A stretch of DNA of 64,000 nt from Heptranchias perlo. Taxonomy: Eukaryota. Shown here in pieces: positions 2,005 to 30,373 of this stretch (its first letter is position 1; each line of letters begins with the position of its first letter). A program made the position numbers and the translations under genes. The stretch covers positions 11,346,001-11,410,000 of the forward strand of contig NC_090363.1 in NCBI RefSeq assembly GCF_035084215.1. The letters are read 5' to 3'. Below the pieces are notes generated by a model. It was not told the origin of the DNA. It made no database searches and worked only from the letters and a program-made list of their open reading frames with translations.

Positions 2005-3724
2005 ATGGGACGAACAGAAGTTGTGTACGAATCAGTCATTTGCTATCCAATTCTTGCAATTATTGGTGTTCCCGGTAAGCAATAACAAGCATTCATTATT
2101 TGGACCATCATTTCAATGAATTATTGCTTTGACTATGCGCTGTTTGTATCTATATCTTTGTTCCTTATTTGTCCATTTTATGGTAACAGTTTATAGAATA
2201 GAAGTCTCTCACTTCACCTTGTTTACTTTAAAATGACAAATTTGTGGTATTATATAATGTTCCCTAAAAGTATACACCAAAAGCAAGTTCTCCCCTTTGT
2301 TTAACGCCCTGCAATCTGCTGCCTGGTTGAAGTGTGGCCATCAGGTCGAACGTGAGGGTCCGCATGCGAAACATTAACCTATCTTTCTCTTCCATGCCTG
2401 TTGCTCATCTCTAAGATCTAGTTTTTCTGAATCACGTGTATGAATTGGCAACAAATCAATGGCTATTTTACATAACTCTGTTCATTACCTTGCCAGAATG
2501 AAAAGCCTTCTGATCAGTGATGTATCTCCTAAAAGATAATTGACATAATTGTAAAACTGTCTCGGTTAATCAGATGTATCAAACGCGGGGCCAATTCTCA
2601 CCAATTCGTATGCTGTACAATGTATGTTCTGGACTGAGGTCAGTTAATTCAGCAGAGAGCAGGGTGTGAATTTGGCACCATCCAGTTCCGGTTGTCTCAA
2701 GTACCGCTTCCACTGAGAATGAAAGGGTGCCATTTCCCTAACAAGCCTCTGTTCTTACAATTGCGAGATTTTATATCGCCGATCTATTTCTTCATTAATT
2801 CTCTTGTTTTTGCAATTTCTGACAGCGAATCTGATGTCAGTTGTGATCCTGTCCCGGGGAAAGTGCGTTCTCTCCAAAGGAATCACTCGTTACATGGTGG
2901 CCATGGCAATAGCAGATCTATTGGTCTGTATCTTTAATGTATCTGTAGAAAGCATCTTTAGGTATCATTTCCCAAATACATTCTTGAACTACACTTACAC
3001 GTGTCGCTTTAGTGCCATTATACAAGTAGTTAGCCCTCGACTCTCTATCTGGTTCACACTGGCATTCACCTTTGACCGCTTCATAACCATTTGTTGCCAG
3101 AAACTGAAATTAAAATATTGCACTGAAAGAAATGCTGCTATAGTTATCACTGTAGTGTGTGTGCTCAGTATATTGATCAATATTCCTGTTTATTTCCGTT
3201 ATGAGCCCTACTATATTGTTGACGATATACAGTGGGGCTGCCGTACAGCAACAGGTTATTTTTATTTACCGGCATGGATAACTTACAAATGGATTAGCAC
3301 TCTCTCATCCCCATTACTTCCATTCCTATTGTTGTTGGTATTAAATATCCTCACTGCCAGGCACATCTTAGTGGCCAGTAGATCTCGCAGAGCCCTGAAG
3401 AGCCAAAGCATCGGGGAGAACAAAAGTGATCCTGAGATGAAGAGCAGAAGAAGGTCCATCATTCTACTCTTCTCTGTCTCAGGTAGTTTAATTTTGTTGT
3501 CGGCTCCAATTACTGTAATACACATCTCTGTCGGTGTCACGGAAACAGCTAATTTCCAAGGTTCAAGCTCATTTTATTCAGCAATTAGAATCACACTTCT
3601 GTTGTATTATTTGAGCTCCTGCACAAACACGTGCATTTATGCATTGACCCAGAGGAGATTCCGGGAGGAAATGAAGAATACGGTGAAATATCCGTTTACT
3701 CTCATTCTTACATTATTTAAGTAA
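2005..3724 (+). CDS. GPCR-A: class A GPCR, GPR139/GPR142-like, 2 exons (2005-2074, 2826-3724), 322 aa
   Basis: Exon 1 MGRTEVVYESVICYPILAIIGVP ends at a G|GTAAGC donor. Acceptor TTTCTGACAG|CG gives a phase-1 join to ANLMSVVIL. Seven hydrophobic segments, TM2 AIADLL, TM3 FTFDRF, ECL2 WGC, TM7 SCTNTCIY, helix 8 RRFREE. No internal stops. Confidence 0.9.
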
Positions 3725-3929
3725 TGTAAATAACTAAATTGAAATTAAACTCATTTTACCGGTATCTAGCTTCTCTGTTGCCGGTTGATCGGTTCGGCTG
3801 AAGCAGGGGTTCCGCCCATTACTTCTTATCTTTCCAGAACATCAGTTGTCCCACTTTCCAATTTCGCAAGGAGATGGTACTTGTGCTGCTGTTGTGAAAC
3901 TCGCCATGGCGACGTCACAAAACTTCTCT

Positions 3930-5400
3930 CCTGAATGACTTGGCTCTGTTTTTAAGGTTATATCCCTTTCTCCTAGACTCCACTACCAGCGGAAAAAAAT
4001 CATCTTTATCCACCCTATCAATTCTTTTCAAAGTCCTAAAAAGCTCATCAAATCACCCCTTAACCTTCGATATTCCAGGGTGTAAAATCCTAGTTTATGC
4101 AAACTCGTTTAAATAATCAAACCCTTAGTACCATGGTAACATTCTGGCGAATCTGCGCTGCACTTCAATCAAGGCCAATATATCCTTTCTAAGATGCAGT
4201 GCCCGGAACTGTGCACAGTACTCCGGATTTAGTCTGACCGGGACTTTGTATGGCTGCAGCAAATCTTCCTCCTCTACATAGTTTAACCCTCTGGTTATAA
4301 ACGCTAACATTCCATTAGACTTCCTGATTTTTTTTTACCTGACTGCTACGTTTTATTGATCTGTGTACATGGACACCTAAATCTCTTTGGACCACCACTG
4401 TTCCTAGCTTTTTACCATTGAAAGAATATTCGGATGGTTGATCTTTATTTTAACTCCATCTACCCGTCTTTGCTATATATCACTTGATACTTCTACCTGA
4501 TCAAACTATATCTATCTCAGTCTTGAAAGCTCCAATTGCGCCAGCATCCGTAACATTTTGGGTGAGCGCGTTCCATATTTCGTGTGAAAAAGTGCTTTAT
4601 GATTTTGCTCCTGGATGGCCAAGATCTAATTTTAAGATTATGTCCCTTTGTTCTTGATTCCTCCACCAGAGGAAATGATTTCTCTGTATCGACGCTATCA
4701 AATCCCTTTAACGTTATAAATACGTTGATCAGATCACCGTCAATCCCTACACTTAAGGGAATTCAAACCAACTTTATGGAACCTGACTGCATAATTTAGC
4801 CCTTGAAGCCCCATCAGGAGTATCAATGAGGAGGGCATTCAGACCCTCGAGCCTGTTCCACCATTCAAATAGATCATGGCTATTCGGTATCTCAACTCCA
4901 CGAACCGCCTTTGTACAAAATCCCTTAATACCCTAAGCAGAAAATAATCTATCAATCTCAGCTTTAAATTGTCAATAGACACCCAGCCTCAGTAGCTTTT
5001 TGGGGAGACAGTTCTAGATTTCCACTAACCTCGGTGTCAAAAAAGGTTTCCCGGCAACACCTCCGAACGGCCTAGCTCCAATTTTAAGGTTGTGCCCTTG
5101 CACTGGATCCCCCCCCCAACCCCCCCCCCCCCCCCCGCCCAGAAGAAATAGTTGATCTCTATCTATCCTATAATATCCTTTAATCATCTTAAACACTTCA
5201 ATTCGATCGCGCCTGAGTGTTCTATACTCAAGGAAGCACAAGCCGAGTCTATGCAACCTATCCACGTAATTTAACACTTTTAGCCCCGGAATCATTCTGG
5301 TGAATCTGTGCTATACCCACTCGAAGGCCAATATATCCATTCCTTCTTGAGGTGTGGTGCCCAAAAGTGAAGGCAATACTCCTGATGGGATTGGATCAAG
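3930..5400 (-). mobile_element. Stack of old 5'-truncated CR1 LINE 3' fragments
   Basis: Minus-strand translations resemble the CR1 ORF2 C-terminus (LNPEYCAQF...VQRRFARMLP; MIPGLKVLNYVDRLHRLGL...IEVFKMIKG). Confidence 0.75.
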
Positions 5401-5401
5401 A

Positions 5402-6862
5402 ATAGAACCATAGAAGCATAGAAAAGATACAGCACAGAAAGGGGGCCATTCGACCCATTGTGTCCGCGCCGGCTCGTAGAACAACCAGGTGCCCATTCTA
5501 ATCCACCTTCCAGCACCCGGTCCGTAGCCCTGCAGCTTACAGCACTTTAGGTGCAGGTCAAGATACTTTTTAAAAGATTTGAGGGTCCGCGCCTTGACCA
5601 CCAATTCGGGCAGTGAATTCCATACCCCCACCACTCTCTGGGTAAAAAAAAGTTTTTCCTAATGTCCCCTCTCATCCTTCCGCCAATCAGCTTAAATCTA
5701 TGTCCTCTAGTTCTTAAAGTCTCCGCTAGGGGAAACAGGTACTTCCTGTCGACTCAATCTGGGCCCCTCATGATTTTGTACACCTCAATCAAGTCACCCC
5801 TCAGCCTCCTCTGCTCCAAGGTAAACAACCCCAGCCTATCCAATCTCTCCTCGTAGCTGCAATTTTCAAGCCCTGGCAACATTCTTGTAAATCTTCTCCG
5901 CACTCTCTCTCCAGAGTAATTCCGTCCTTCCTGTAATGTGCTGACCAGAACTGCGCACAATACTCCAGATGTGGCGTATCAGCCTTTTCTATAGTTCCAT
6001 CATTACATCCCTACTTTTGTATTCCACAACTCGGCTAGTAACAGAGAGCATTCTGTATGCATTCTTCACACCCTTATCTACCTGTATTGCCACCTTCACG
6101 GACCTGTGCACATGCACTCCAAGGTCCTCACTTCCTCTAACCCTCTCAATATATTCCCGTTTACTGCGTATTCGCTTTTACTGTTTGCCCTCGCTAACTG
6201 CATGACCTCACACTTGTCCGGGCCCACTCCACCAATCCATTGATATCTTCTTGAAGTCTACAGCTATCCTCTTCACTATCAACTACACGACCAGTTTTTG
6301 AGTAGTCTGCAAATTTGCCAATCATGCCCCTTACATTCAAGTCTAAATCATTAATATAAACCACAAACAGCAAGGGACCCAACACTGAGTCCTGTGGCAC
6401 ACCACTGGAAAAGAATTTCAATTCGCAAAGACATCCATCGACTTTTACTCTTTGTTTCCTGTTACTGAGACAATTTTGGATCCAATTCGCCACATTTCCC
6501 TGTATCCCATAGGCTTTTACCTTTTTGTCCAGTCTGCCATGAGGGACCTTGTCAAATGCCTTACTAAAATCCATGTAGCCAACATCCACTGCATTACCCT
6601 CATCAATCCGCCTCATCACTTCCTCAAAGAATTTAGTCAGATTTGTAATGCATCACCTTCACTGAACAAATCCATGCTGACCATCCTTGATCAAACCATG
6701 CCTTTCCAAGTTACAGTTTATCTTATCTCAGTATTGATTCGAATAGTTTGCCCACCACCGAGGTAAGACTGACCGGCCTAAAATTTTTCGGCCTTTCCCT
6801 CGTACCCTTTTAAAACAATGGTACTACGTTTGCAGTCTTCCAGTCCTCCGGTACCTCCCCTG
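5402..6862 (-). mobile_element. Younger CR1 LINE (RT to 3' tail, internally deleted), apparently nested in an older CR1
   Basis: YMDFSKAFDKVPHGRL, SGVPQDSVLGPLLFVVYINDL, KFAD motifs; (CATAGAA)n tail at 5402-5425. The older CR1 sequence resumes after about 6865. Confidence 0.85.
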
Positions 6863-6864
6863 AG

Positions 6865-7420
6865 CTTCAATCTATTCTACTGAATCTATTCAACTGAAGC
6901 ATAACTTCCTCCCCTTTGTAATCCAGCCCCCTTAAGATAAAGACTAACATTCTATTAGCCTTTTTGAATGCTTTTGTACCTGTCAACTAGCTTCTAATGA
7001 TTTATGTGCTTAGACTCTCAGATCTCTTTGCCCACATTGAAATCTATTTGCCAGAGTTTTGACACTCAATTAGCTTTCTATGTCCCTTTGCAAGTTCCTG
7101 CTAGCAACTGCACTATTTACCGGCCCTACTAACTGAGTGTCAACTGCAAACTTGGATTTACAACTCTATTACTTCATCCAAGTCATTAATAAATATGGGG
7201 GAAATGTTGAGGTTCCAGAACAGATCCCCATGGAACACCACTTGTCACATCTCGTCAATTAGAGTGTGCCCCCTTTAGTACCATTCTCTGTTTCCTTTAT
7301 AACCACTTTGCCTTGGGTACATGCCTCTCTGATCTCCATATTTATGCATCGCGCTGCTGCATCATTGCTGTCAGTGGGTCTGTCGACGAATCCAACCAGA
7401 GTCTTAAAGTCCTTTGTTTA
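6865..7420 (-). mobile_element. Old degraded CR1 RT fragment
   Basis: Degenerate GVPWGSVL / INDLDE / KFAVD-like motifs on the minus strand. Confidence 0.6.
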
Positions 7421-8028
7421 TAAAAAGCACACGGGGTCCTGGGCTATATAAATAAAGGCATAGAGTAGAAAAGCAAAGACTAGATGCTAAACCTTCATAA
7501 AGCATTGGTTCGGCCTCAGTTGGAGTGTTGTGTCCAATTCTGGGCACCATGCTGTAGGAAGGATGTGAATGCTTTGGAGAGGGTGAAGATGAGACTTCCC
7601 ACAATGGTACCAGGTTGTGGGACCTCAGTTATGTGGAGAGAATTAGAGAACATAGGATTGTTCCCCTTGGAGCAGAGAAAGTTTATGGAAGATTTTAGAA
7701 GGTGTTCAAAATTATGAATGGTTTTGAAGGAGAAATTGTTTCCACTGGAAGGAGGATCGGTAACCAGAGGACAGAGATTTAAGATATTTGGCAAAAGTAC
7801 GAAGGGGGAGATGAGGAGAAATTATTTTATACAGTGAGTAGTGATGATCTGGAAAATATTGCTTGAAAGGGCGGTGGTAGCAGGATAAATACTTGAAAAG
7901 GAAAAGAATTACAGGGCTTTGGGGAAAGACGTGGGCAGTGGCACTAATGGGATAGCTTTTTCAAAAAGACGGCACAGGCACAATGGGCTGAATGGCCTAC
8001 TTCAGCGCTGTAACGTTCTATGATTCTT
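7420..8028 (+). mobile_element. CR1 LINE 3' fragment
   Basis: MLNLHKALVRPQLECCVQFWAP...; 3' UTR GGGCTGAATGGCCT and TTCTATGATTC tail. Confidence 0.8.
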
Positions 8029-8885
8029 TGTGTTTCTTAATTCTACCAGAGTGTATCCACAGTTTGCTCACCCATACTGATATGCTTCCTTTCAACTGCA
8101 GCAATATTGACTTGTAGCAATATTGCTAATCCTCCTCTTTTCCCTATTTCCCTGTTATTTGTAAAGTCCTTATAGCCTGAATATTAAGTTCCCATTCTTT
8201 TATTGTCAACTGAGGAGTTCCGTTACTCCGTTCATTTCCCATATCAATTATTTATTCATCCATCATCCAATCTTCCCTAACTTTCTCTTGATATCCCCGC
8301 AATGAAATCTCCTTTTCAATTTTAATTCGCCAAGGTTTCCTGCCAAAGTTTATCATTACTGGTTCATTGCATTTTGAATGAAGTCATTGGCACATCGAAT
8401 GTTGCTCATGTCCTTATTGAGTGGCCTTCGACTCATTCGAACATGAGAAATCTACGCATTCAGATTGCAAGGGAAATTATTTCTGCAGACTTGTTCAACT
8501 GAACCTTTGACAAGATCCAACAAGGTTACCATAATTTGTACTTAGCATCCTGAGCAAATCGCAAATTAAGTCATGGAAGAAAGAACCGAATGAATTTGAT
8601 GTCGTTTTCCTTTTCAAGTTACAATCAGTTTTGAAACTGAATTTACAATGTTATTTTTCTTGGAAATACATAAATAAATACACTTGCTGCACCATCGCAT
8701 GGCTTCCTGCAGCTAAATCAAACCAACGAGTATTCAAAAGTGACTGATAGGCCAAGGGAAATGCGGGCTTTATTATCACCAATTGGATCTGAATTCCCCC
8801 TTTACTCTGCTCCTCAGCTGAACTTCGATTCCAGGGCAAACGCTCAGCCACTGACGCCATTCTTCACCTGTGTGGGGACACAATG

Positions 8886-9042
8886 GGGTAATTTTAAATT
8901 AGCTCACCGGGCAGGAAACCCATGGGATCGGGTGGAATGCCGGCTTTACACTCCGCCCAATATTACTGTGCACTGACTTCAATAGAGAGTAAAATCAGGC
9001 GGGGTGATCAAGTGGGTTTAGGGCGGGTTAGGTTAAAATTGC
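8886..9042. mobile_element. Palindromic MITE (non-autonomous DNA transposon)
   Basis: Ends GGGGTAATTTTAA... and ...GGTTAAAATTGC. Related copies at about 9240-9400, 9485-9615, 26157-26337 and 30740-30983. Confidence 0.55.
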
Positions 9043-11736: not shown

Positions 11737-11817
11737 TTTACACGAAAACAAATTTCGAAATGTTGGGCGAAAGGATCCGGCTGGTGCACTGAGGCCATGC
11801 ATTGAAAGCAGCCCTGA

Positions 11818-11896
11818 TTTATACAGGAGCCAGATCTCCATTGAGACACTGAAGTTACATAACACCTCTCATTAACGGCAGGCAATTCAACAAACA
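11818..11896 (-). promoter_or_regulatory. Core promoter of GPCR-B (same module as GPCR-A)
   Basis: On the minus strand: TGTTTGTT 11896-11889, TAAT 11874-11871, TTATGTAA 11862-11855, TATAAA 11823-11818. Confidence 0.65.
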
Positions 11897-12781: not shown

Positions 12782-13615
12782 AGGAGCCGAGCCGAGCGGA
12801 GGGAGCGTCCGATAAAAGGCGGGATTTCAGAGCGCTGAGAGGAGCCGAGCCGAGCGGAGGGAGCGTCCGATAAAAGGCGGGATTTCAGAGCGCTGAGAAC
12901 AGCTGAGAGGAGCGGAGGGAGCGTCCCATAAAAGGCGGGATTTCAGAGCGCTGAGAACAGCTGAGAGGAGCCGAGCCGAGCGGAGGGAGTGTCCGATAAA
13001 AGGCGGGATTTCAGAGCGCTGAGAACAGCTGAGAGGAGCCGAGCCGAGCGGAGGGAGCGTCCGATAAAAGGCGGGATTTCAGAGCGCTGAGAGGAGCCGA
13101 GCGGAGCGGAGGGAGCGTCCGATAAAAGGCGGGATTTCAGAGCGCTGAGAACAGCTGAGAGGAGCCGAGCCGAGCGGAGGGAGCGTCCGATAAAAGGCGG
13201 GATTTCAGAGCGCTGAGAACAGCTGAGAGGAGCGGAGCGGAGGGAGCGTCCGATAAAAGGCGGGATTTCAGAGCGCTGAGAACAGCTGAGAGGAGCGGAG
13301 CGGAGGGAGCGTCCGATAAAAGGCGGGATTTCAGAGCGCTGAGAACAGCTGAGAGGAGCCGAGCCGAGCGGAGGGAGCGTCCGATAAAAGGCGGGATTTC
13401 AGAGCGCTGAGAACAGCTGAGCCGAGCGGAGGGAGCGTCCGATAAAAGGCGGGATTTCAGAGCGCTGAGAACAGCTGAGAGGAGCCGAGCCGAGCGGAGG
13501 GAGCGTCCGATAAAAGGCGGGATTTCAGAGCGCTGAGAACAGCTGAGAGGAGCGGAGCGGAGGGAGCGTCCGATAAAAGGCGGGATTTCAGAGCGCTGAG
13601 AGGAGCCGAGCGGAG
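12782..13615 (+). repeat. CR1 5' UTR tandem monomer array (13 units, about 59-70 bp)
   Basis: Repeating GAGCGGAGGGAGCGTCCGATAAAAGGCGGGATTTCAGAGCGCTGAGA(ACAGCTGAGA)GGAGCC. Confidence 0.9.
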
Positions 13616-13934
13616 CTGCGACCGAGTTCGAAGTGACGTCAGGAATCAGATCGGGACGCGACACAGGGGAGGCACCTGATTGGTGAGTAGGTTCAGGTGA
13701 GTATTTCTCCTTCTCTGCAGTAACTGAAGTAAAAGGAAAGGGAAGGTCTGCAGGTCTTATAGGAAGTAGCGTTTATTTTTTAGTGAATCAAGGTCCCTAG
13801 TGTAGTTAACATTCTCTAAATTGAGAACAATTTAAAGGAGTAAACTCCTTAAAGGGAGTGGTAAGTAGTTTTTCTTTCCTTTTTTTTTTCTCTTGACATT
13901 GTAGTTGTTCTTAAGCTAATTTAAGGGTTAAGTC

Positions 13935-14882
13935 ATGGCAGGAGATCCCAGCGCCGTGTCATGTTCCTCTTGTGGGATGTGGGAATTCAGGGCTCCTTCC
14001 TGTATCCCTGATTCCTTCACCTGCGGGAAGTGTGTCCAGCTGCAGCTATTGTTTGACCGCTTGACGGCTCTGGAGCTGCGGATGGACTCACTTTGGAGCA
14101 TCCGCGATGCTGAGAAAGTCGTGGATAGCACGTTCAGTGAGTTGGTCACACCGCAGATAAAAATTACTGAGGGAGATAGTGAATGGGTGACCAACAGACA
14201 GAGGAAGAGTAGGAAGGCAGTGCAGGGGTCCCCTGCGGTCATCTCCCTCCAAAACAGGTATACCGTTTTGGATACTGTTGGCGGAGATGGCTCACCAGGG
14301 GAAGGTGGCAGTGGCCAGGTTCATGGCACCGTGGCTGGCTCTGCTGCACAGGAGGGCAGGAAAAAGAGTGGCAGAGCTATAGTGATAGGGGACTCGATTG
14401 TAAGGGGAATAGACAGGCGTTTCTGCGGACGCAACCGAGACTCCAGGATGGTATGTTGCCTCCCTGGTGCAAGGGTCAAGGATGTCTCGGAGCGGCTGCA
14501 GGACATTCTGGAGGGGGAGGGTGAACAGCCAGTTGTCGTGGTGCATATAGGCACCAACGATATAGGTAAAAAACAGGATGAGGTCCTACAAGCTGAATTT
14601 AGGGAGTTAGGAGTTAAACTAAAGAGTAGGACCTCAAAGGTAGTAATCTCAGGATTGCTACCAGTGCCACGGGCTAGTCAGAGTAGGAATGACAGGATAG
14701 CTAAGATGAATACGTGGCTTGAGAGATGGTGCAAGAGGGAGGGATTCAAATTCCTGGGCCATTGGAACCGGTTCTGGGGGAGGTGGGACCAGTACAAATT
14801 GGACGGTCTGCATCTGGGCAGGACTGGAACCAATGTCCTAGGGGGAGTGTTTGCTAGTGCTGTTGGGGAGGGTTTAAACTAA
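13935..14882 (+). CDS. CR1 ORF1p: N-terminal zinc finger, coiled coil, SGNH/GDSL esterase domain
   Basis: CSSC...CGKC zinc finger; SGNH blocks IVIGDS, PGARV, HIGTND, DGLHL. Intact, 315 aa. Confidence 0.9.
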   Translation: MAGDPSAVSCSSCGMWEFRAPSCIPDSFTCGKCVQLQLLFDRLTALELRMDSLWSIRDAEKVVDSTFSELVTPQIKITEGDSEWVTNRQRKSRKAVQGSPAVISLQNRYTVLDTVGGDGSPGEGGSGQVHGTVAGSAAQEGRKKSGRAIVIGDSIVRGIDRRFCGRNRDSRMVCCLPGARVKDVSERLQDILEGEGEQPVVVVHIGTNDIGKKQDEVLQAEFRELGVKLKSRTSKVVISGLLPVPRASQSRNDRIAKMNTWLERWCKREGFKFLGHWNRFWGRWDQYKLDGLHLGRTGTNVLGGVFASAVGEGLN

Positions 14883-17830
14883 TGTGGCAGGGGGATGGGA
14901 ACCGATGCAGGAAGTCAGTGGGAAATAAAGTGGTGACAGAAACAAAAGGCAGTAAGGGAGAGTGTACAGAACATGACCGGACAGATGGTCTGAGAAAGCA
15001 GGGCAAAGACCAAGGGAAGACTAGATTAAACTGCATTTATTTCAATGCATGAAGTCTGATGGGCAAGGCAGATGAACTCAGGGCATGGATGGGTACATGG
15101 GACTGGGATGTTATAGCTATTACTGAAACATGGCTAAGGGAGGGGCAGGACTGGCAGCTCAATGTTCCAGGGTACAGATGCTATAGGAAAGATAGAGCAG
15201 GAGGTAAGAGAGGAGGGGGAGTTGCGTTCTTGATTAGGGAGAACATCACGGCAGTAGTGAGAGGGGATATATCCGAGGGTTCGCCCACTGAGTCCATATG
15301 GGTAGAACTGAAAAATAAGAAGGGAGAGATCACTTTGATAGGATTGTACTACAGACCCCCAAATAGTCAACGGGAAATTGAGGAGCAAATATGTAAGGAG
15401 ATTACAGACAGCTGCAAGAAAAATAGGGTGGTAATAGTAGGGGACTTTAACTTTCCCAACATTGACTGGGACAGCCATAGCATTAGGGGCTTGGATGGAG
15501 AGAAATTTGTTGAGTGTATTGAGGAGGAATTTCTCATTCAGTATGTGGATGGCCCGACTAGAGAGGGGGCAAAACTTGACCTCCTCTTGGGAAATAAGGA
15601 AGGGCAGGTAACAGAAGTGTTAGTGAGGGATCACTTTGGGACCAGTGATCATAATTCCATTAGTTTTAAGATAGCTATGGAGAAGGATAGGTCTGGCCCA
15701 AAAGTTAAAATTCTAAATTGGGGAAAGGCCAATTTTGATGGTATTAGACAGGAACTTTCAGAAGTTGATTGGGAGAGTCTGTTGGCAGGCAAAGGGACGT
15801 CTGGTAAGTGGGAGGCTTTCAAAAGTGTGTTAACCAGGGTTCAGTGTAAGCACATTCCTTATAAAGTGAAGGGTAAGGCTGGTAGAAGTAGGGAACCTTG
15901 GATGACTCGGGAGATTGAGGCACTAGTCAAAAATAAGAAGGAGGCATATGACATGCATAGCCAGCTGGGATCAAGTGGATCCCTTGAAGAGTATAGAGAT
16001 TGCCGGAGTAGAGTTAAGAGAGAAATCAGGAGGGCAGAAAGGGGATATGAGATTGCTTTGGCAGATCAGGCAAAGGTGAATCCAAAGAGCTTCTACAAAT
16101 ACATAAAGGGCAAAAGGGTAACTAGGGAGAGAGTAGGGCCTCTTAAGGATCAACAAGGTCATCTATGTGCGGAACCACAAGAGATGGGTGAGATCCTGAA
16201 TGAATATTTCACATCGGTATTTACGGTTGAGAAAGGCATGGATGTTAGGGAACTTGGGGAAATAAATAGTGATGTCTTGAGGAGTGTACATATTACAGAG
16301 AGGGAGGTGCTGGAAGTCTTAACGCGCATCAAGGTAGATAAATCTCCGGGACCTGATGAAATGTATCCCAGGACGTTATGGGAGGTTAGGGAGGAAATTG
16401 CGGGTCCCCTAGCAGAGATATTTGAATCATCCACCGCTACAGGTGAGGTGCCTGAAGATTGGAGGGTAGCAAATGTTGTGCCTTTGTTTAAGAAGGGCGG
16501 CAGGGAAAAGCCTGGGAACTACAGACCAGTGAGCCTGACATCTGTAGTGGGTAAGTTGTTAGAGGGTATTCTGAGGGACAGAATCTACAGGCATTTGGAG
16601 AGGCAGGGACTAATTAGGAACAGTCAGCATGGTTTTGTGAGAGGAAAATCATGTCTCACGAATTTGATTGAGTTTTTTGAAGGGGTAACCAAGAAGATAG
16701 ATGAGGGCTGTGCAGTAGACGTGGTCTACATGGACTTCAGCAAAGCATTTGACAAGGTACCGCATGGTAGGTTGTTACATAAGGTTAAATCTCATGGGAT
16801 CCAAGGTGAGGTAGCCAATTGGATACAAAATTGGCTTGACGACAGAAAACAGAGGGTGGTTGTCGAGGGTTGTTTTTCAAACTGGATGCCTGTGTCCAGC
16901 GGTGTGCCTCAGGGATCGGTGCTGGGTCCGCTGTTATTTGTTATTTATATTAATGATTTGGATGAGAATTTAGGAGGCATGGTTAGTAAGTTTGCAGATG
17001 ACACCAAGATTGGTGGCATTGTGGACAGTGAAGAAGGTTATCTAGGATTGCAACGGGATCTTGATAAATTGGGCCAGTGGGCCGATGAATGGCAGATGGA
17101 GTTTAATTTAGATAAATGTGAGGTGATGCATTTTGGTAGATCGAATCGGGCCAGGACCTACTCCGTTAATGGTAGGGCGTTGGGGAGAGTTATAGAACAA
17201 AGAGATCTAGGAGTACAGATTCATAGCTCCTTGAAAGTGGAGTCACAGGTGGATAGGGTGGTGAAGAAGGCATTCAGCATGTTTGGTTTCATTGGTCAGA
17301 ACATTGAATGCAGGAGTTGGGATGTCTTGTTGAAGTTGTACAGGGCATTGGTGAGGCCACACTTGGAGTACTGTGTACAGTTCTGGTCACCCTATTATAG
17401 AAAGGATATTATTAAACTAGAAAGCGTGCAGAAAAGATTTACTAGGATGCTACCGGGACTTGATGGTTTGACTTACAGGGAGAGGTTAGACAGACTGGGA
17501 CTTTATTCCCTGGAGATTAGGAGGTTAAGGGGTGATCTGATAGAAGTCTATAAAATAATGAGGGGCATAGATAAGGTCGATAGTCAAAATCTTTTCCCAA
17601 AGGTAGGGGAGTCTATAACGAGGGGGCACAGATTTAAGGTGAGAGGGGAGAGATACAAAAGGATCCAGAGGGGCAATTTTTTCACTCAAAGGGTGGTGAG
17701 TGTCTGGAACGAGCTGCCAGAGGCAGTAGTAGAGGCGGGTACAATTTTGTCTTTTAAAAAGCATTTGGACAGTTACATGGGGAAGATGGGTATCGAGGGA
17801 TATGGGCCAAGTGCAGGCAATTGGGACTAG
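14882..17830 (+). pseudogene. CR1 ORF2p (APE endonuclease + reverse transcriptase) with one in-frame TGA at 15050-15052; 923-aa open frame from 15059
   Basis: ATG at 14882 overlaps the ORF1 stop (TAATG) and is in frame with 15059, reading LNCIYFNA*SLMGK. Motifs AITETW, GDFN, SDH, YRPVSLTS, DFSKAFD, GVPQGSVLGP, FADD. Confidence 0.85.
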
Positions 17831-18627
17831 CTTAGTGGTATAAACTGGGCGACATGGACATGTTGGGCCGAAGGGCCTGTTTCCATGTTGTAACTTCTAT
17901 GATTCTATGATTCTATGTGCTCCCTAAAATTGTAACGATAGGATAAATCCTTCCCAAACGCACCACGCTCAGAGATTCTCAAGTGGACGACGACAGTATT
18001 TGCAACACAACTGGAAACCGACATAATTGGGTTCTTGGGTTCCGGAAATTGTTAGAGAGCGTGATTCCGCTTCCGAACCCACCACACCCACTCCCCACCT
18101 CTCCAAGTTCCATCCTCAACTTCTCATTTCAAGATATATTCATATTAGGAAGCTTTATGGCTCCTTGTCATGAAGCAGTGTGATCTGTAGAAGTCTCCAA
18201 GCTTCTGTCATCAAGGGAAATCGGGGAATTCTATCCCGCAGAAAGAACATCGCGGGATGTACTCGGGTGGAATGTGAAATGATGGTGAGCTCTGTCCATC
18301 CGCTAATTAATGGCGAGCGACACTCTGCAAATTGCCAACATCCTGTCAATCTCACTCAGGCTGTTTGGGGAAAGATAACGAAAACTCCTAGCAGTTCAGT
18401 AGTTGCTGAGGAATCTTCTTGTTCCAGAATAGAGAGAGCTTTACTCTGCATTCACCGTGTGCTTTATTTGCAATGATTCATGTGGATGTTGGAATATAAT
18501 CTGCTCCATTGCCTTTAATTTTTCGCATCTCACCTTGTACATAAAACATTCTCATATTTCCGATGAGAAATAACTACTTGATCGCTTTTTTTGCACTGGT
18601 GAGCCACGTTTTTTATGACCTCGGAAG

Positions 18628-22110: not shown

Positions 22111-22287
22111 TTCTTTCCCAAGAAAAGTTCAGCTCATTGCATGCAGTCAGGATGCGGTAACTTAGCAACAGATTGAGAGGTGGAGAGATAAATCAGCTGG
22201 AAATTTCTCGTATATTCTGCACCGTGCATTCCTCCACTGAGAGATCAGTGAGGTCACTATATTTTTGCAGAGAGAATTGTTGTAATG

Positions 22288-22370
22288 TGTTTGTTAAAAC
22301 GCCTGTAACTAATATCAGTTGTTATGTAACTCCCACTGCCCCACTGGAGAATTCTCTCAGATATTAATAA
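22288..22370 (+). promoter_or_regulatory. Core promoter of GPCR-C (same module as A and B)
   Basis: TGTTTGTT 22288-22295, TAAT 22310-22313, TTATGTAA 22322-22329, TATA-like ATATTAATAA 22361-22370. Confidence 0.6.
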
Positions 22371-22444
22371 GGATCTGTGTCCCATTCATTGCCTCACTGT
22401 GTCAGTCGGACCTGTCATTCACATGAGCTTTCCTCTTTCTGAAA

Positions 22445-25400
22445 ATGGGACGGGCTCCAATACTGTACTTAAAAGAAATCAGCTATCCGATTCTGGCAGT
22501 GTTCGGTGTTCCTGGTAAGTGATAATTATACTTTTAATTTTGTGTGTTATTGCTCTTTCCCAATGTGTTGGAAATGCAGCCGATTTATCTGGGGGTCTTT
22601 GTTGCTGAGTTGCCTGTATTCTGATATAATTTTCATGAACTGCTTCCTCTATCTCTGTGATATTTGTATTGGATGATCTTTTATTGAAGTTATATTTTTT
22701 CGTGTTCTATTACCTTGAAATAAGGATCTAGACTGCGGCTCAGCGGTAGTATTCCCGCCTCTGAGTCAGGAGGTGAAGGGTTGGAGTCACACTCTGGATA
22801 GCCTAGGCAAGTGGAGGCTAGAATAAGGTCTCCAATAATGGATTGCATCCAGCGGGGTACTCCGGATTGGAAGGAGTGGTCGAATGCCCGCCTCTGAGCC
22901 AGAAGGGTTGGGTTCGGGTCCCACTCCTGATTGCTCGGTCAAGCAGTGACCAGAGTGTAGGCTCTGAATTGATGTCCAGCAGGGATACATGATATGGATG
23001 GGCGTTGTAGCAGATTCAGACGTGACACTAAATGGTAATCAATGTCTCATTTATTAATATATAAATCAAACGTGTAAAGGTATCAAAGATCAAAACAACA
23101 TTATCCCATTTTGATCTCTGGGCAGAGGTCGTAATTAAGTTGGCAACATGGTCGTTTCAGGCTTTCCGACAGTGAGGTAGTCTTCTGATGGTCAGGTGTT
23201 CTTCTGACAGTAAGGTGTCATCTTCAGACAACTAGGTGTGCTTCAGACAGCAAGGTGTTCTTCTGAGAGCTAGGTTTCCTTCTGATCGCCAGGTGTGCTT
23301 CTGATAGCTAGATGTTCTTCTGATCGCTCGGTGTGCTTCTGATAGCGAGTTGTGCTTCTGATAGCTAGCTGTGCTTCTGATAGCCAGCTGTGTTTCTGAT
23401 AGCGAGTTGTGCTTCTGATAGCTAGCTGTGCTTCTGATAGCGAGTTGTGCTTCTGATAGCGAGTTGTGCTTCTGATAGCCAGCTGTGCTTCTGATAGCTA
23501 GCTGTGCTTCTGATAGCGAGTTGTGCTTCTGATCGCTCGGTGTGCTTCTGATAGCTAGGTGTGCACCTGATAGCGAGTTGTGCTTCTGAGAGCTAAGTGT
23601 GCTTCTGATAGCTACCTGTGCTTCTGTTAGCTAGCTATGCTTCTAACAGTTCGGTAGCCTTCTGACAGCTGGGCGGGCTTTGCTGAATCCTCTGACCCGA
23701 GCTCAAAATACGTTGGGTTTATATGTCTCCCTTGGCAGGAACCTCCCACCATATATGGAACAATATTCACAAGATCCTTATCGAGTAACAAAGTTGTGTT
23801 TCAAAGAATTCAAGATAGTCAGCTTGTTTTAACATTACTCATTTAACCACAAGACTCTTTGCAATGTTATTTTTCAAGGTGACCAGTTTGTTTGTCCCTG
23901 TCGTCTCGCTATCTCGTCATGGTCCTGGTCTTATCGATATCTTTGGGTTATTGTTCCGCTTTTTGGGTCATTGTTCCTCTTTTGCTACATATCTGCCTTG
24001 CTGCATAGTGAGGGCAACAAGGGTCAGTCACGAGTCAAAGGTTAACTATTTATAATTCAGCAAATTAAGTTACACACTCGGCAAAATACACAGCACAGTC
24101 TGCAGAGCAAGATGGTTAGTAGCATTGGAAATACGTCAATTTTTCTCTATTTCCAATATTTTTACAGTGCCGGTGCACCCCCTCCTCCCATTGTAAAGGA
24201 TATGTGGGGCTCTTTAGTTTAGTTTAGTGTTAGCCTTGGCTCAGTGGTAACACTCTCCCCGCTAAGTCAAAAGGTTGCGGGTTCAGGTCCCACTCCAGAG
24301 ACTTTGAGCGCATAATCTAGGTTATCTCTTCAGTGCAGCACTGAGGGAGTACTGCGCTGTCTTTCAGATAAGAAGGTAAACTGAGGCCCTGTTTGCCCTC
24401 TTAGCTGGACATAAAGGATCCCATTGCACTTTTCGAAGAAGTGCAGGCAAGTTCGCCCCAGTATCCTGCCCAATATTTATCCCTCAACCAATATCTAAAT
24501 AACAGATTATCTGGTCTTTATCTCATTGCTGTTTGTGGGTGCTTGCTGCCTTCCATTTCCTGTGTTACAACAGAGACTAAATTTCAAAGGTACTTCATTG
24601 GCTGTAAAGCGTTTCCTGACATCATGAGGTCGTGGAAGGCGCTATATAAATGCAAGTTGCACCTTTCTTTCTTTCGTAATGGATTTTCAAACTCCGACCG
24701 AATCCCTCGCTCCACAGTCGGCATTCAGTGTGGCCGTTCGCATGCATTTAATACAATAACCAATGACTTGTCGGTGGCATGTTCTTCGGTTTACCAGGTC
24801 ATTCTTCCCATTCCCTTCAGTCATTTACCTCCATTAAAGTCACTTCTATCAAAGCAATCAGTTACCTTCCCAGCACAGTGATCTGCTCCGTTTAATTGAC
24901 CATTTCCCTGTTGTTTCGTGTCCTACAGCGAACCTGATGACGGCTGTGATCCTGTCCCGGGGAAAGTGCGGTCTCTCCAGGGGAATCACGCGTTACATGG
25001 TGGCCATGGCAATCTCAGACCTACTCGTGCTGACCTTTCATGTACTGCTTCAACACATCTTTACTTATCATTTCCCCAAGTCATTCCTGTTCCACACTGC
25101 AGTCTGCCCTTCATACACCTACATGAAAATCATTATTCTGGATTGCTCCGTCTGGTTAACAGTGTCGTTCACCTTTGACCGTTTTGTCAGCATTTGCTGT
25201 CAGAAGCTGAAACTCAGATATTGCACGGAGAGAACTGCTGCTGTGGTTATTCTGACCATGTGGGTACTGAGCTGTTTAAAGTACGTCCCGTTTCACTTCA
25301 TGTATGAGCCCCGCTTTGTCATTGACAACGTACCATGGGGCTGCCGGCCCAAAGCGGTCTTCTTCACTTATCCAGCCTGGGTGGCTTTCTCCTGGATCTG

Positions 25401-25848
25401 CAGTCTCTCCACCTCACTGCTCCCGTTCTTTCTCATCTTGCTGTTCAACGGCCTCACGATCAGACACATCCTAGCGGCCAGCAAAGTCCGCAGGGCTCTG
25501 AAGGGACTGAGCGGCGGGCAGAACCACGGCGACAGCGAGACGGAGAACAGGCATAAATCCATCGTCTTACTCTTCTCTGTGACCGGCAGTTATATACTGT
25601 TGTGGATGACAGCAACGGTGACTTACATGTTCACGAAGATCACAACGAATGTTTTGGACCAGAATCACACAAGCCCCGCATACATCGCCAATCATGTTGG
25701 AGTTGTGCTCATGCTCACTAGTTCTTGTGCAAACACGTGTATTTATGGAATGACCCAATGCAAGTTCAGAGAGGAGGTGAAGAACGCGGTTACATATCTG
25801 CCAGTTCGAGTTATTAAATTAATAAAATTAAAACTACAATCGGGCTAG
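22445..25848 (+). CDS. GPCR-C: class A GPCR, GPR139/GPR142-like, 2 exons (22445-22514, 24929-25848), 329 aa
   Basis: Exon 1 MGRAPILYLKEISYPILAVFGVP ends at a G|GTAAGT donor. Acceptor GTCCTACAG|CG joins to ANLMTAVIL. 7TM with FTFDRF, WGC and SCANTCIY. Same phase-1 intron position as A and B. Confidence 0.88.
23006..24167 (-). mobile_element. Probable solo LTR (ERV/gypsy-like), antisense within the GPCR-C intron
   Basis: TGTA...TACA ends. On the minus strand, TATAAA at about 23723-23718 precedes AATAAA at about 23055-23050 (U3-R-U5 order). No clean TSD recognised. Confidence 0.4.
23180..23670. repeat. 19-bp minisatellite (TGTGCTTCTGATAGCTAGC consensus)
   Basis: About 25 tandem units, more degenerate at both edges. 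Confidence 0.85.
24232..24673 (+). mobile_element. tRNA-headed Deu-domain SINE (SacSINE1-like)
   Basis: A-box TGGCTCAGTGG, B-box-like GGTTCAGGTCC, Deu core, AAGGCGCTATATAAATGCAAG tail. Confidence 0.8.
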
Positions 25849-26156
25849 AGCTCACATCTGAATATAACGGGTCCATTCTCTCCTATTCCTTCCCATCACT
25901 TCACCATCTGGTTCCTTCAATACGAACCAGAGTACATTCCTTGAATAGGGTTCTCGCTGTGCGTTGTACTGAGATAAAACACTGACTGTATGTAATGGTA
26001 ATGTTTATGCTGAAAACACACTGCTGTAAAGGACTGGTGAAAACGACAAGAGTCACAGGTTACTGTTTCTTTAATGTTTCCTTGCATCAGAACGGACAAA
26101 TTTTGTAACAACCGTCCCCATAACGAGTGGTAAATAAGGATAGAAAAGTAGCATAT

Positions 26157-26337
26157 TGGGGCAATTTTAACCTAACCTACCGGTCGGGAAACTGACGGAA
26201 TCAGTTGCAAAACTCGTTTTACAACCCGCCTGATTTTACTCTCCAATGAAGTCAGTGGACAGTAATATTGGGCGAGGTGTAAAACTAGGGTCACACCCGA
26301 TCCCGTGGGATTCCCGTCTGGCGCGTTAGGTTACCCC
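26157..26337. mobile_element. Palindromic MITE
   Basis: GGGGCAATTTTAACCTAAC...GTTAGGTTACCCC ends; same family as 8886-9042. Confidence 0.6.
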
Positions 26338-27169
26338 ATAAGCTACCAGATTTCTTCTACATTCCCTTTCCGAGAGTTTGAGGAGCTATTTGGCCTGAAC
26401 TTGCTCAACTTGAAAGGTAACATATTGGGGTAATTCAATAGTTAGATATGGGACTGTTGCGAGACTTTTCAGCAACTTGTCAGGGCCCCTGGATTCGAGC
26501 CCGAGCATTAAGGCCTTCCCCACGTTGGTCCCTCTTCCCCCGCACAACTGTGTTGTAGGTAAGTGGGTGAAGATTATAGGGGATCCGGCCTTGCTCCAAG
26601 ACCAGAGTCAAAGCAGTGCCGTGCTATCTGGCAGGAGGCCCAAAGAAAGCCTTGATTCCCTCACTGCGTTTCTTGGCTCCTTGAATACGCTTCTAGTAAA
26701 GTGGGTGAAATTGGGGAGAATCAGTCGAGTGAAGGGTTAGGACGTAGACCAGATCCTGAGATCGGTGACGCTGCGCGCAGTGGGATCCATTCGCACATTA
26801 TCCTCAGCCTGTGCCTTCACGTTTTATACAGTGCGCACATCAAGCACCAAGTGCCAGGTACCTCGTGGGTTGAACGTAGGATGATACGTTATGTTACCTT
26901 CTCTCCACTGTCCACCCAGTATCAACATCTGTACGACACAAGAGAACTTCCTTAATGTCACTATTATCATATCGGTCAAATGTATGGAGTGATGTGACAG
27001 GTACAGGAATGTTCAAAATAGTGTTTGCATGCAGCCGTATGAGAATTAGGGTACAGGGCAGTTGAACCGCGATGGGTCCAGGAGCATTTCCCATCCCTGA
27101 TTATTTCCTGCTCATCTGCACTGTTGCGTGTCTCCACTCTAACACCAATCAGTAACACCTGACAACGAA

Positions 27170-28142
27170 ACCATTTCATGAAAGAAAGAGTTGTTTGAGG
27201 GATAAATATCGGCCTGGACACTGGGGAAAACGCCCCGAGTCTTTGAATTTTGTCAAGGGATCTTTTATGTCCATCTGAGTGGGCAGACAGTGCCTCAGTT
27301 TAGCTTCTTATCCGAAAGACGACACCTCCGACAGTGTCGCACTCTCTCTGTACTGCCCCTCTGACAGTGCAGCTCCCCTTCAGTACTGACCCTCCAACAG
27401 TGCTGCGCCCCTTCAGTACCGATCCTCCGACAGTGCAGCGCCCCCTCAGTCCTGACCCTCCAACAGTGCAGCACTCTCTCAGTCCTGACCCTCCAACAGT
27501 GCAGCGCCCCTTCAGTACTGACCCTCCGACAGTGCAGCGCCCCCTCAGTCCTGACCTTCCAACAGTGCAGCACTCCCTCAGTCCTGACCCTCCAACAGTG
27601 CAGCACTCTCTCAGTCCTGACCCTCCAACAGTGCAGCGCCCCTTCAGTACTGACCCTCCGACAGTGCAGCGCCCCCTCAGTCCTGACCTTCCAACAGTGC
27701 AGCACTCCCTCAGTCCTGACCCTCCAACAGTGCAGCACTCCCTCAGTCCTGACCCTCCAACAGTGCAGCGCCCCTTCAGTACTGACCCTCCGACAGTGCA
27801 GCACTCCCTCAGTCCTGACCCTGCAACAGTGCAGCGCCCCCTCAGTCCTGACCCTCCAACAGTGCAGTACTCCCTCAGTCCTGACCCTCCAACAGTGTAG
27901 CACCCCCTCAATACTGCCCCTCCGACAGTGCAGCGCCCCCTCAGTACTGACCCTCCAACAGTGAAGCACTCCCTCAGTACTGACCCTCCGACAGTGAAGC
28001 AATCCTTCAGTCCTGACCCACCAACAGTGTAGCACTCCCTCAGCACTGCACTTAAGTACCAGGTTAGATTATGTGGTCTGGAATGGGGCTTGAACCCACA
28101 ACCTTCTGACTCAGGTGAGAATGCGACTGACTGAGCCACGAC
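27170..28142 (-). mobile_element. Deu-domain SINE with an internally amplified 33-bp minisatellite
   Basis: SINE head at about 28050-28142 and SINE body at about 27170-27330 flank the tandem array. Confidence 0.75.
27325..28045. repeat. 33-bp minisatellite (CAGTCCTGACCCTCCAACAGTGCAGCACTCCCT)n
   Basis: About 21 tandem units; produces spurious repetitive ORFs on both strands. Confidence 0.9.
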
Positions 28143-28234
28143 TGACATAGTAACATGGAAACCGTTTATAAAATATACCAATACAATAAATCTCTTCCTT
28201 AATGTGTGGAGCGCCGCCTCACTCCCCAAATGGC

Positions 28235-28665
28235 AAGGAGACCAAAACTGCACACAGTATTCTAGATGTGGTCTCACCAATGCCCTGTACAACTGTAGCA
28301 AAACATCTCTACTTTTATATTCCATTCCCCTTGCAATAAATGACAACATTCCATTTGCCTTCCTAATCACTTGCTGTACCTGCATACTAACTTTTTGTGA
28401 ATCATGTACGAGGACACCCAAATACGTCTGTACCTCCGAGTTCTGCAATCTCTCTCCATTTAAATAATGTACTGCTTTTCTATTCCTCCTGCCAAAATTG
28501 ACAAGTTCACATTTTCCCACATTGTACTCCATCTGCCAAATTTTTGCCCACTCACTTAACCTATCTATACACCTTTGCCGACTCCTTATGTCCTCTTCAC
28601 AATTTACTTTCCTACCTGCCTTCGTGTTATCGGCAAATTTAGCAACCATACATTCGATCCCTTGA
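28235..28665 (-). mobile_element. CR1 RT fragment
   Basis: KFADNTKAGRKV...WQMEYNVGKCE...LYRALVRPHLEYCVQFWSP. Confidence 0.85.
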
Positions 28666-28799
28666 ATGTTATTCTTAACAAATAAAAGCAAACAAATAAT
28701 AACAACAACAACTGCAGATGCCGGAAATCTGAAACAATAATTACTATACAGGCCCTGGGAGCCCTCAATATTGACTGTCTTGGCTTTAAGTGATTTAAG

Positions 28800-29085
28800 G
28801 TCGAGGAAATAGCCTGCTGATCACCACCTACCCCTAACTGACGAATCTGTGCACCTCCATATTGAGCATCACTTGGATGAAGCTCTGAGGGAAGCAAGGC
28901 CACAGAATGTACACTGTGAAGGAACATCAATGACCACCCCACAGAGTGGCTTGACAGTGCCATCAATGACCACACTGGCTGAGTCCCAAATGGCATGGCG
29001 GTCAGACTGGGCTTCCATCAGTTCATGAGGGAATCAATTCGAGGCAGTAACTTAATTGACTTCATCGTCATCAACCTACCTGCTT
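28800..29085 (+). mobile_element. Degraded LINE endonuclease fragment
   Basis: Degenerate version of GDFNVHHQEWL...LGLHQ..REPTRG.NL.DL...NLP endonuclease motifs. Confidence 0.45.
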
Positions 29086-29249
29086 CCAGGAGCAGCATCG
29101 ACAAATGGAGAATTCACCGCTTCGCTCAGTGGTCGCACTGCAATCTCTGAATCAGTAGATCGTTGTTCTAAAAGCTTGACCGCATAAATTGCCAGAAATG
29201 AAGCACAGATACAAGGTGAAAATGAAAACCAGAAATTGCCTAATTTAAA

Positions 29250-30193
29250 ACACAGGTACCAGGGTCTTTTTATGGTTTCCAGCTCAACAGGCCAGCCAGA
29301 TTGACAGGCTGATTGACAGGCTGATTGACAGGCAAATTGACAGGCTGATTGACAGTCAGATTGACAGGTTGGCCTCAGTCAGACGGGAGAAGAGGAAGGA
29401 AGAGGACGTGAAAAGGTAAGTGATAGATGGGGGGAGGGTCAGTGGATATCAGGGACGGCTCAGTCATCAGGGGTCATCTGGCAGGATAGGGGGTCGCCAG
29501 GGGGAGTCAGGGGTCACTGGGGTGGGCTCAGTCATCGGAGGGCTGTCAGTCACCAGGGGGCTGTCAGTTATCGAGGGGGGTCTCAGTCATCGGGGGCGGG
29601 GGGTGGGGGTTGCTCAGTCATCGTGGAGGGCTCAATCATCGGGTGGAGGGGTCGTCAGTCATTGGGGGGGGCAGTCATCGGGCGGAGCTCAGTCATCGGA
29701 GGGGGCTCAGTCATCAGGGGTCATTGGGTGGTCAGTCATTGGAAACTCTCAGCCATCGGGGAGTCAGAGATTGTGAGGGGGGAGTCAGAGATCATGAGGG
29801 GGGAGTCGGAGATCGTGAGGGTGGTCGCTGCAGGACGGTTTGTTCGGCCTGGGGAAAGCACTCCTGCTCCTCCGGGCCCACAAGCTGTGCTATAAAGGCA
29901 TTTACCTGCAGTTTCAGGCCTTCTCGCCTCCTCTCAAGTGACGTGAAGTAGAAGGAGCGGGAATCCCGCCCCCAGTGGTTAAAAACAAAAAATCTGTATT
30001 TATGGAGGCCCGCAGCCTCCGTGAAAGCTTTTAATGACCAACCCACCTATTGAGAGTTGGTCGCCTGTCCCTGGTCCCGCCTCTGTTAAAACCGGAACTG
30101 GGGGGTGCGGTTGGAGGCGGGATGGGGGCGGATTTTGGATTTTAAATCTTTTTACTGCCAGCAACCCGTTTTCCCCATTTAAAATCATGGCCA
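29250..30193. mobile_element. Non-autonomous Harbinger-like element with a G-rich low-complexity core
   Basis: Right terminus ...CCCGTTTTCCCCATTTAAAATCATGGCC. Shares the GAAAGCACTCCTGCTCCTCCGGGCCCACAA block with the element at 34022-35045. Left boundary is approximate. Confidence 0.5.
29298..29370. repeat. 12-bp tandem repeat (TGATTGACAGGC)n, 6 units
   Basis: Directly visible in the sequence. Confidence 0.85.
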
Positions 30194-30199
30194 ATATTT

Positions 30200-30373
30200 T
30201 TCAAAGGTCCAAACTCACCTTATTTGGCAAAGAGAATCACCCTTCCGTTGGCGTATTTGAGGTCCTGTACAAACACGTGTATTTATGCATTGACCCAGAG
30301 GCGATTCCGAGTGGAGATGAAGAATATGGTGAAATATCCATTTACTCTCATTATTAAATTATTTAAGCAATGA
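30200..30373 (+). pseudogene. 3' remnant (ECL3-TM7-helix 8-stop) of a fourth GPR139-like GPCR, closest to GPCR-B
   Basis: Reads FKGPNSPYLAKRITLPLAYLRSCTNTCIYALTQRRFRVEMKNMVKYPFTLIIKLFKQ*. Followed by about 400 bp similar to the GPCR-B 3' flank. 5' part absent. Confidence 0.85.

Follow-up and report, generated by a model that had tools for sequence, protein, structure and literature searches.

The genome of the shark Heptranchias perlo carries, in a 64,000-nucleotide stretch of contig NC_090363.1 (positions 11,346,001 to 11,410,000; hereafter the window), three receptor genes, A, B and C, which sequence comparison assigns to a large, multi-locus, elasmobranch-expanded repertoire of class A G-protein-coupled receptors (GPCRs). 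This repertoire belongs to the wider GPR139/GPR142 superfamily and is apparently undescribed so far. Its members vary more in the putative ligand pocket than in the rest of the extracellular half and keep a constrained intracellular face. The explanation that we favor, with a probability of about 0.5, is that they serve environmental or luminal chemosensation.

A large receptor family in sharks and rays

A cluster search with exon 2 of gene A (clusters at 90% identity, E <= 1e-20) returned 1,374 clusters among 4,150 candidates, a total that may include non-family proteins among the 1,254 clusters beyond the best 120. Species were named for 118 of the best 120 of these 1,374 clusters, and all were sharks or rays (16 species); one other cluster was gene B. 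In the same best 120 of 1,374, a hand tally gave 29 clusters from H. perlo on 14 scaffolds, ten of them on the scaffold of the window, with 92 member sequences, among which there may be isoforms and near-identical proteins from other species. Heterodontus contributed 25 clusters on 13 scaffolds and Pristiophorus 18. An exhaustive profile search yielded 140 representatives (50% identity, E <= 1e-30), and a skate member turned up in the search for the amphibian group X described below. The elasmobranch range rests on the species-named rows; basal representatives carried no species assignment, and holocephalans or other non-elasmobranchs may be among them. Matches in the ESM Atlas were confined to 'probable GPR139' and FMRFamide/Srw-like clusters. 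A preliminary description of the window had proposed a lineage-expanded family, and these counts, with at least 29 clusters in H. perlo, bear it out.

Automatic names proved a poor guide to the family. Unrelated receptor names were attached to 14 of the best 120 clusters, and counts by name therefore undercount it. We rejected the names C5a, mu-opioid, melatonin and P2Y6 receptor on close relatives as artefacts, as these proteins share 58-74% identity with gene A and, wherever the tree included them, nested within the family. An exon-1-like part was present in 59 of the 120 database models, which, as a weak indication, would fit low transcript support in routinely sampled tissues.

Species-specific clades of Mustelus, Narcine and H. 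perlo were recovered by FastTree (160 rows), and in the IQ-TREE phylogeny (44 rows) subfamilies held sharks and rays together. The expansion therefore began before the shark-ray split and continued in single species. Together with a truncated copy in the window (remnant D), the species-specific clades indicate turnover by gene birth and death.

Variation is concentrated in the putative ligand pocket

Across 78 named members, mean column identity was 0.37 on the extracellular side and 0.65 on the intracellular side. The ratio of extracellular to intracellular divergence was 1.78 in this set, 1.99 in 17 H. perlo members and 1.63 in 49 further representatives, compared with 0.81 (8 rows) and 1.08 (15 rows) in two low-copy control groups of related receptors, X and Y. 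We thus rejected the objection that a variable outside and a constant inside are generic to any GPCR set, since the asymmetry was not seen in X and Y. The preliminary description had called the intracellular parts nearly invariant; they are the more conserved side, but the wording overstates the picture across the family. Four of its five quoted intracellular motifs were found in A, B and C, and the fifth, RFREE, reads KFREE in C.

At 29 pocket positions, identity in the family was 0.28, against 0.40 at 69 other extracellular transmembrane (TM) positions (p 0.014). The order was reversed in the control groups, in which the pocket was the more conserved part (0.91 vs 0.71 in X; 0.78 vs 0.59 in Y). 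When intracellular identity was matched at 0.65-0.75, pocket identity was 0.28 in the family, 0.97 in X and 0.79 in Y. These comparisons indicate that, within the extracellular half, the family varies more at the pocket than elsewhere, and that in the low-copy groups it is the other way round. Extracellular divergence over a constrained intracellular face and diversification focused on the pocket had both been anticipated, as had many copies and the absence of a placement in another known family, and all of this was found. Between species, the pocket was kept: eight reciprocal-best cross-species pairs had a mean pocket identity of 0.79 (range 0.55-0.93), vs 0.77 elsewhere outside.

Pairwise ratios of nonsynonymous to synonymous substitution rates (dN/dS) on the intracellular side were 0.21-0.24 for the three pairs of A, B and C (A-B 0.24). 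On the extracellular side, the ratio was 0.95 for A-B and 0.40 and 0.39 for the other two pairs. D3.49, R3.50, N5.58 and N7.49 were invariant in 78/78 members and C3.25 was present in 75/78. On this evidence, the intracellular face evolves under purifying selection.

Relation to GPR139 and to two low-copy groups

When a 52-sequence family profile was compared with the PDB, human GPR139 ranked first (85.9 bits, E 2e-23; next 59.8 bits), which makes it the nearest human relative among receptors with solved structures. A single window sequence placed GPR139 at about rank 47 (E 1.6e-4), and Foldseek, with GPR139 at rank 3, did not discriminate among class A receptors. The two kinds of receptor align over TM1 to helix 8 (identity 21% in the structural alignment with 7vug_R), share Asn at 5.58, and both lack the canonical NPxxY proline. 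GPR139 is also encoded by two exons (PMC7318219, accessible in part), as are A, B and C, and the automatic database name 'probable GPR139' derives from it. Coupling to Gq/11 is a further mark of GPR139.

The differences were larger. The agonist pocket of GPR139 comprises E3.32, F3.33, H5.42 (5x43), W6.48, R6.51 and N7.39 (7x38), according to the accessible part of PMC8807744. These residues occurred in 2, 7, 6, 57, 2 and 3 of the 78 members, respectively, and 61 members had at most one of the six; in the window, gene A had none, and B and C only W6.48. C3.25 and a cysteine in extracellular loop (ECL) 2 were each kept in 75/78 members, whereas GPR139 has Asp at 3.25 and lacks the TM3-ECL2 cysteines. 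GPR139 is a highly conserved orthologue (70% between human and zebrafish; PMC7318219, in part), whereas the shark family is multi-copy. We therefore rejected orthology with GPR139 or GPR142, given the 21% identity, the single-sequence E-value and the agonist residues that are not kept. Judged by these comparisons, the window receptors are distant members of the GPR139/GPR142 superfamily, not duplicates of GPR139. The earlier label 'GPR139-like' thus holds for the profile ranking, but not for identity, agonist residues or cysteines, and the family groups with X.

Group X was represented by a single cluster per species, in 20 amphibians (66-74% identical to the newt query) and in one sturgeon, and the search with that query returned no amniote or teleost. 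It is 32-33% identical to the shark family (profile E 1.7e-53). Its pocket is near-invariant and GPR139-like, with F3.33, K6.51 and N7.39 in 8/8 rows, Lys replacing R6.51. Group X is thus low-copy with a near-invariant pocket, whereas the shark genes are numerous and share no consensus pocket. The X records (P0212, P0270-P0289) are labelled 'probable GPR139' and represent a strongly conserved receptor with non-canonical S1.50 and N2.50. Comparing the two amounts to a natural experiment on the orphan GPR139 group, with numerous shark variants on one side and, on the other, a conserved amphibian gene that is low-copy and has a GPR139-like pocket. Group X is a good target for deorphanization.

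Group Y, a conserved gnathostome receptor, was found in three sharks as well as in coelacanth, ray-finned fishes, amphibians and reptiles, with neither bird nor mammal among the 120 of 145 matches listed. An intron at the P|AN site is inferred for Y, as 11/119 models start exactly at the Ala after the site; groups X and Y both keep the disulfide cysteines. Two of the Y records (P0220, P0294-P0411) are named TMEM183A isoforms, which suggests that the gene adjoins TMEM183A or is fused with it in annotation.

The IQ-TREE analysis used 44 selected rows rooted on invertebrate-like receptors; GPR139 and GPR142 were not part of the trees. Support was 96/94 for the family, 98/99 for the family with X and 100/99 for Y, which stood apart as a clade containing shark orthologues of its own. 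Approximately unbiased tests rejected a grouping of X with Y (p 0.015) and did not reject a grouping of the family with Y (p 0.078). A sister relationship of group X and the shark family is the best-supported arrangement of these sequences. Rinne et al. 2019 (PMC6504862) named the orphan receptors GPR210A/B, close to GPR139/142, from coelacanth, gar and fishes, and the accessible part of that paper mentions sharks 0 times. Group Y is probably part of GPR210A/B, judged by species range; the Ensembl identifiers were unmatched to X or Y.

Gene models and proximal promoters

A six-frame scan and tblastn located three long seven-transmembrane (7TM) exons and one short fragment within 1-31 kb of the window (Table 1). 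Genes A, B and C are all open and consist of an upstream mini-exon and a long exon, separated by a GT-AG phase-1 intron at the identical GxP|AN codon of TM1. The gene models and tblastn agree with the three intact genes and one remnant in mixed orientation that had been reported (A, C and D forward, B reverse). Protein identity was 68% for A/B and 52% for both A/C and B/C. Remnant D was the only further significant tblastn piece (30194-30373; next match E 0.01). It is 5'-truncated and closest to B, with 155/175 coding bases identical and 79% identity across 844 nt including the 3' flank.

Table 1 Features of the window (positions counted from its first nucleotide)
Feature	Position	Strand	Description
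Gene A proximal promoter	1851-1930	+	Block of TGTTTGTT, TAAT and TTATGTAA; TATA box at about -81
Gene A exon 1	2005-2074	+	23 codons + 1 nt: short N-terminus, first half of TM1
Gene A exon 2	2826-3724	+	Remaining 7TM domain to stop; receptor of 322 aa
Gene B exon 2	10989-10088	-	Receptor of 320 aa
Gene B exon 1	11736-11676	-	Shorter by three codons than its A and C counterparts
Gene B proximal promoter	11817-11896	-	Same motif block as A; TATA at about -87
CR1-like LINE	13932-17917	+	Between genes B and C, apparently full-length
Gene C proximal promoter	22288-22370	+	Same motif block as A; TATA-like at about -83
Gene C exon 1	22445-22514	+	
Gene C exon 2	24929-25848	+	Receptor of 329 aa, different subfamily from A/B
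Remnant D	30194-31025	+	Last ~59 codons (TM7 to stop, stop at 30373) and ~650 nt 3' flank of a B-like gene
TRIM genes (tandem pair)	33052-39377 and 45423-52451	-	RING-Bbox-coiled-coil-PRY/SPRY; next to receptor cluster
Copy of LINE 3' end	52638-52744		107 nt, 98% identical
Minisatellite	53950-56739		2.8 kb, C-rich, 23-nt unit, 122 copies, extreme GC skew
Further minisatellites	12782-13621, 23182-23644, 27325-28048, 40904-41964, 61116-61448		

Pfam 7tm_1 scored above cut-off in all three proteins, and Srx below cut-off in one of the three. Exon 2 of gene A was predicted to form a 7TM bundle (predicted local distance difference test score 82) and matched an H. perlo database record on a 21,079,719-nt scaffold at 100%; the spliced product of gene C stood at distance 0 from database protein P0066 in the tree. 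The database model of gene B (P0018) has its start at an internal Met, leaving out exon 1. That of gene A (P0001) has an N-terminus 75 aa longer, via an upstream exon. We did not adopt this longer form, although an upstream exon may exist given an AG acceptor-like site directly before the gene A ATG (1990-2004). The short-form start was preferred because the spacing from this ATG to a TATA box and a motif block agrees among A, B and C. As described earlier, the short N-terminus has no N-glycosylation sequon, either in A, B and C or in 45/45 family models with a complete short N-terminus. Loop sequons were found in ECL1 of A and ECL3 of C, and in 33/76 named relatives. No tRNA genes were found in the window.

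In all three promoters, TGTTTGTT, TAAT and TTATGTAA occupy corresponding positions and are followed by a TATA box some 81-87 nt ahead of the ATG. The gapped pattern occurred 3 times in the window vs 0 times in 100 shuffles, which therefore speaks for common descent, not for selection. The proximal 180 nt were alignable among paralogues in all pairs (z about 12), compared with z of -0.6 to 4.1 for the introns and distal flanks of A/C and B/C. Two invariant 8-nt runs barely stood out from a simple null (P 0.02-0.07), and three-way promoter identity (0.47) was no higher than that of 4-fold sites (0.51). The tile test against the flanks is thus the stronger evidence from the promoter sequences. 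We take one promoter motif to resemble a Forkhead site and the TTATGTAA element to resemble C/EBP or PAR-bZIP/NFIL3 sites. On this promoter likeness, A, B and C would share a cell-type programme, the cell type itself not being implied.

Genomic neighbourhood

Sawfish chromosome 34, which carries the major histocompatibility complex (MHC), holds 13 'probable GPR139' genes in the accessible supplement of PMC10751288. Ten of the 13 lie in tandem at 13.38-13.68 Mb, with B2M/MHC-Ib on one side and TRIM39-like/MHC-Ib on the other, while two are interleaved with C4 copies and one lies between TRIMs. This search by name applied to sheets with a name column, which those for white shark, catshark, lungfish chr9 and holocephalans lack; in the accessible main text, 'GPR' or 'G-protein' occurred 0 times. 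A sawfish relative of A/B lies on a record of 19,913,265 nt, and the last gene of MHC chr34 ends at 19.83 Mb. In white shark, relatives of A/B as well as of C lie on a record of 115,848,844 nt, and the last gene of MHC chr19 ends at 115.61 Mb. By matching record lengths, close relatives of A/B and C thus appear to lie on the sawfish and white-shark MHC chromosomes. The window would likewise lie in the MHC chromosome of H. perlo, a placement made without direct synteny. The family occupies at least 14 H. perlo scaffolds, and MHC linkage therefore concerns only part of it. With this cluster, the elasmobranch MHC would gain an unreported set of genes.

The two TRIM genes beside the receptors give the window a neighbourhood like that of the sawfish tandem cluster. 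Their RING/B-box parts are 91% identical, and in the second PRY region an internal stretch of about 24 aa is duplicated in frame. The CR1-like long interspersed nuclear element (LINE) contains a first open reading frame of SGNH/GDSL type (316 aa open) and a second of APE-RT type (open for 925 aa downstream of an early in-frame stop), and ends in a short tandem repeat. Long open frames at 42360-43211 and 46943-50323 are presumably decayed pieces of Harbinger/Myb-SANT-type transposons.

Discussion

We propose that one conserved gene of the GPR139/GPR142 superfamily, which survives at low copy number in amphibians and sturgeon, most likely gave rise to the repertoire. Each paralogue would very probably have its own small extracellular ligand, bound deep within the 7TM bundle, and all paralogues would feed one G-protein pathway. 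The ligands would probably be amino-acid-like molecules or short peptides, because the family descends from a receptor group that prefers aromatic residues. In the accessible parts of the respective papers, GPR139 responds to Trp, Phe and peptides (PMC8807744) and GPR142 likewise to Trp and Phe (PMC8807744, PMC7318219), while the wider receptor group is activated by aromatic-terminal peptides and protostome sister receptors bind neuropeptides (PMC8557429). At roughly even odds, the repertoire would form a further chemoreceptor family beside OR, TAAR, V1R, V2R, T1R and T2R, used in sparse cells of the olfactory organ, in taste or solitary chemosensory cells, or in the gut. Support for this comes from the large copy number, the hypervariable pocket with a constrained inside, the pockets kept across species and the turnover. 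All olfactory receptor genes in cartilaginous fishes together number 43.8 on average (20-62), the smallest vertebrate repertoire (PMC10869828, in part).

Several observations weigh against chemosensation. The TM limits and the 29 pocket positions were taken as generic Ballesteros-Weinstein positions rather than measured on the model, and the p-values treat alignment columns as independent. Pocket dN/dS (29 codons, three genes) was 1.14 for A-B and 0.57-0.71 for the other pairs; it is not convincingly above 1, and relaxed constraint may therefore contribute. O/E and homeodomain sites are hallmarks of OR promoters; the O/E palindrome was found in 0/3 and no homeodomain hexamer was consistent in the 400 nt upstream of A, B and C. 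'Receptor 139' was unmatched in the supplements of PMC8455134 (12 of its 24 files), PMC4362833 and PMC13188829. In catshark, the accessible part of PMC11979771 lists no GPCR among 50 top brain/olfactory-epithelium genes, a weak point as V2Rs were missed too, and olfactory neurons are nearly all Go/TRPC2 microvillous, which V2Rs explain in a V2R-dominated nose (PMC10116579, in part). Finally, the MHC linkage and the TTATGTAA element would fit an immune role equally well.

Such a role is possible, though we consider it doubtful. The family would then serve leukocytes or barrier epithelium as a set of innate-immune sensors or chemoattractant receptors, comparable to FPR/MRGPR, and would read diverse microbial or damage-derived peptides or metabolites through one G protein. 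The sawfish genes among B2M, MHC-Ib, C4 and TRIMs (PMC10751288, in part), the sawfish and white-shark records fitting MHC chr34 and chr19, the TRIM genes adjoining the window cluster, the rapid species-specific turnover and the conserved TTATGTAA element, which resembles C/EBP or PAR-bZIP/NFIL3 sites, are all consistent with it. However, the linkage is partial, the chromosome assignments rest on matching record lengths, and no PU.1-type hexamer was common to the three promoters. Moreover, mammalian extended MHCs carry olfactory-receptor clusters beside TRIM and BTN genes, and MHC linkage is therefore no discriminator between immune and sensory functions.

It is improbable that the family receives diversified endogenous signals (neuro-, gut- or reproductive peptides, or gamete species cues) and so extends the neuromodulatory or endocrine role of GPR139/GPR142. 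Brain expression of GPR139 and pancreas/gut expression of GPR142 (PMC7318219, in part), the neuropeptide ligands of the protostome sister receptors (PMC8557429, in part), the pockets kept in some cross-species pairs and the presumed Forkhead-type promoter site point that way. Dozens to hundreds of paralogues, species-specific clades and pseudogenes misfit one-ligand endocrine receptors, which low-copy X and Y, with pocket identity of 0.8-0.9, exemplify. Mostly neutral, non-adaptive copy-number drift in duplication-prone, repeat-rich regions, with relaxed ligand binding and constitutive or ligand-independent signalling, could accommodate the A-B extracellular dN/dS not clearly above 1, the LINEs and tandem repeats of the region and remnant D, but is unlikely given the low intracellular dN/dS, the invariant residues, promoters alignable where A/C and B/C introns and distal flanks are not, pockets kept across species, and subfamilies common to sharks and rays.

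Chemosensation thus remains our preferred explanation, and a more far-reaching form of it can be put forward tentatively. The family may have evolved independently from a GPR139-like amino-acid/peptide sensor, may exceed OR, TAAR, V1R and V2R together in many sharks, and may be expressed as one receptor per cell in olfactory or other chemosensory cells; mammalian olfactory receptors linked to the MHC would then have a convergent equivalent in the MHC-embedded cluster, which might read peptide cues. If so, the apparent contradiction between a keen sense of smell in sharks and a set of about 44 known receptors would be resolved.

No description of the shark family was found in the open-access literature, most subscription papers lying outside this coverage. 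Cartilaginous fishes have been described as GPCR-poor (PMC8455134, in part). A family with at least 29 distinct H. perlo clusters under a misleading automatic name would change their GPCR count, whichever tissue uses it.

Among known systems, the family resembles OR, TAAR and V1R receptors in clustered birth and death, a short N-terminus, a pocket that varies among paralogues and a pocket kept between species, and resembles mammalian ORs in an MHC-linked cluster beside TRIM genes. It differs from OR, TAAR and V1R in having a TM1 intron and no O/E site, and from these as well as V2R and T2R in that no Pfam family besides 7tm_1 scored above cut-off in A, B and C, and none other than Srx at E <= 0.01. 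FPR and MRGPR receptors are likewise lineage-specific class A expansions with divergent extracellular halves, but they belong to another class A branch, neither being among the 44 PDB matches at E <= 1e-10. Known here from sequence alone, the shark repertoire would work like an OR/TAAR/FPR-type system, yet belongs to none of them.

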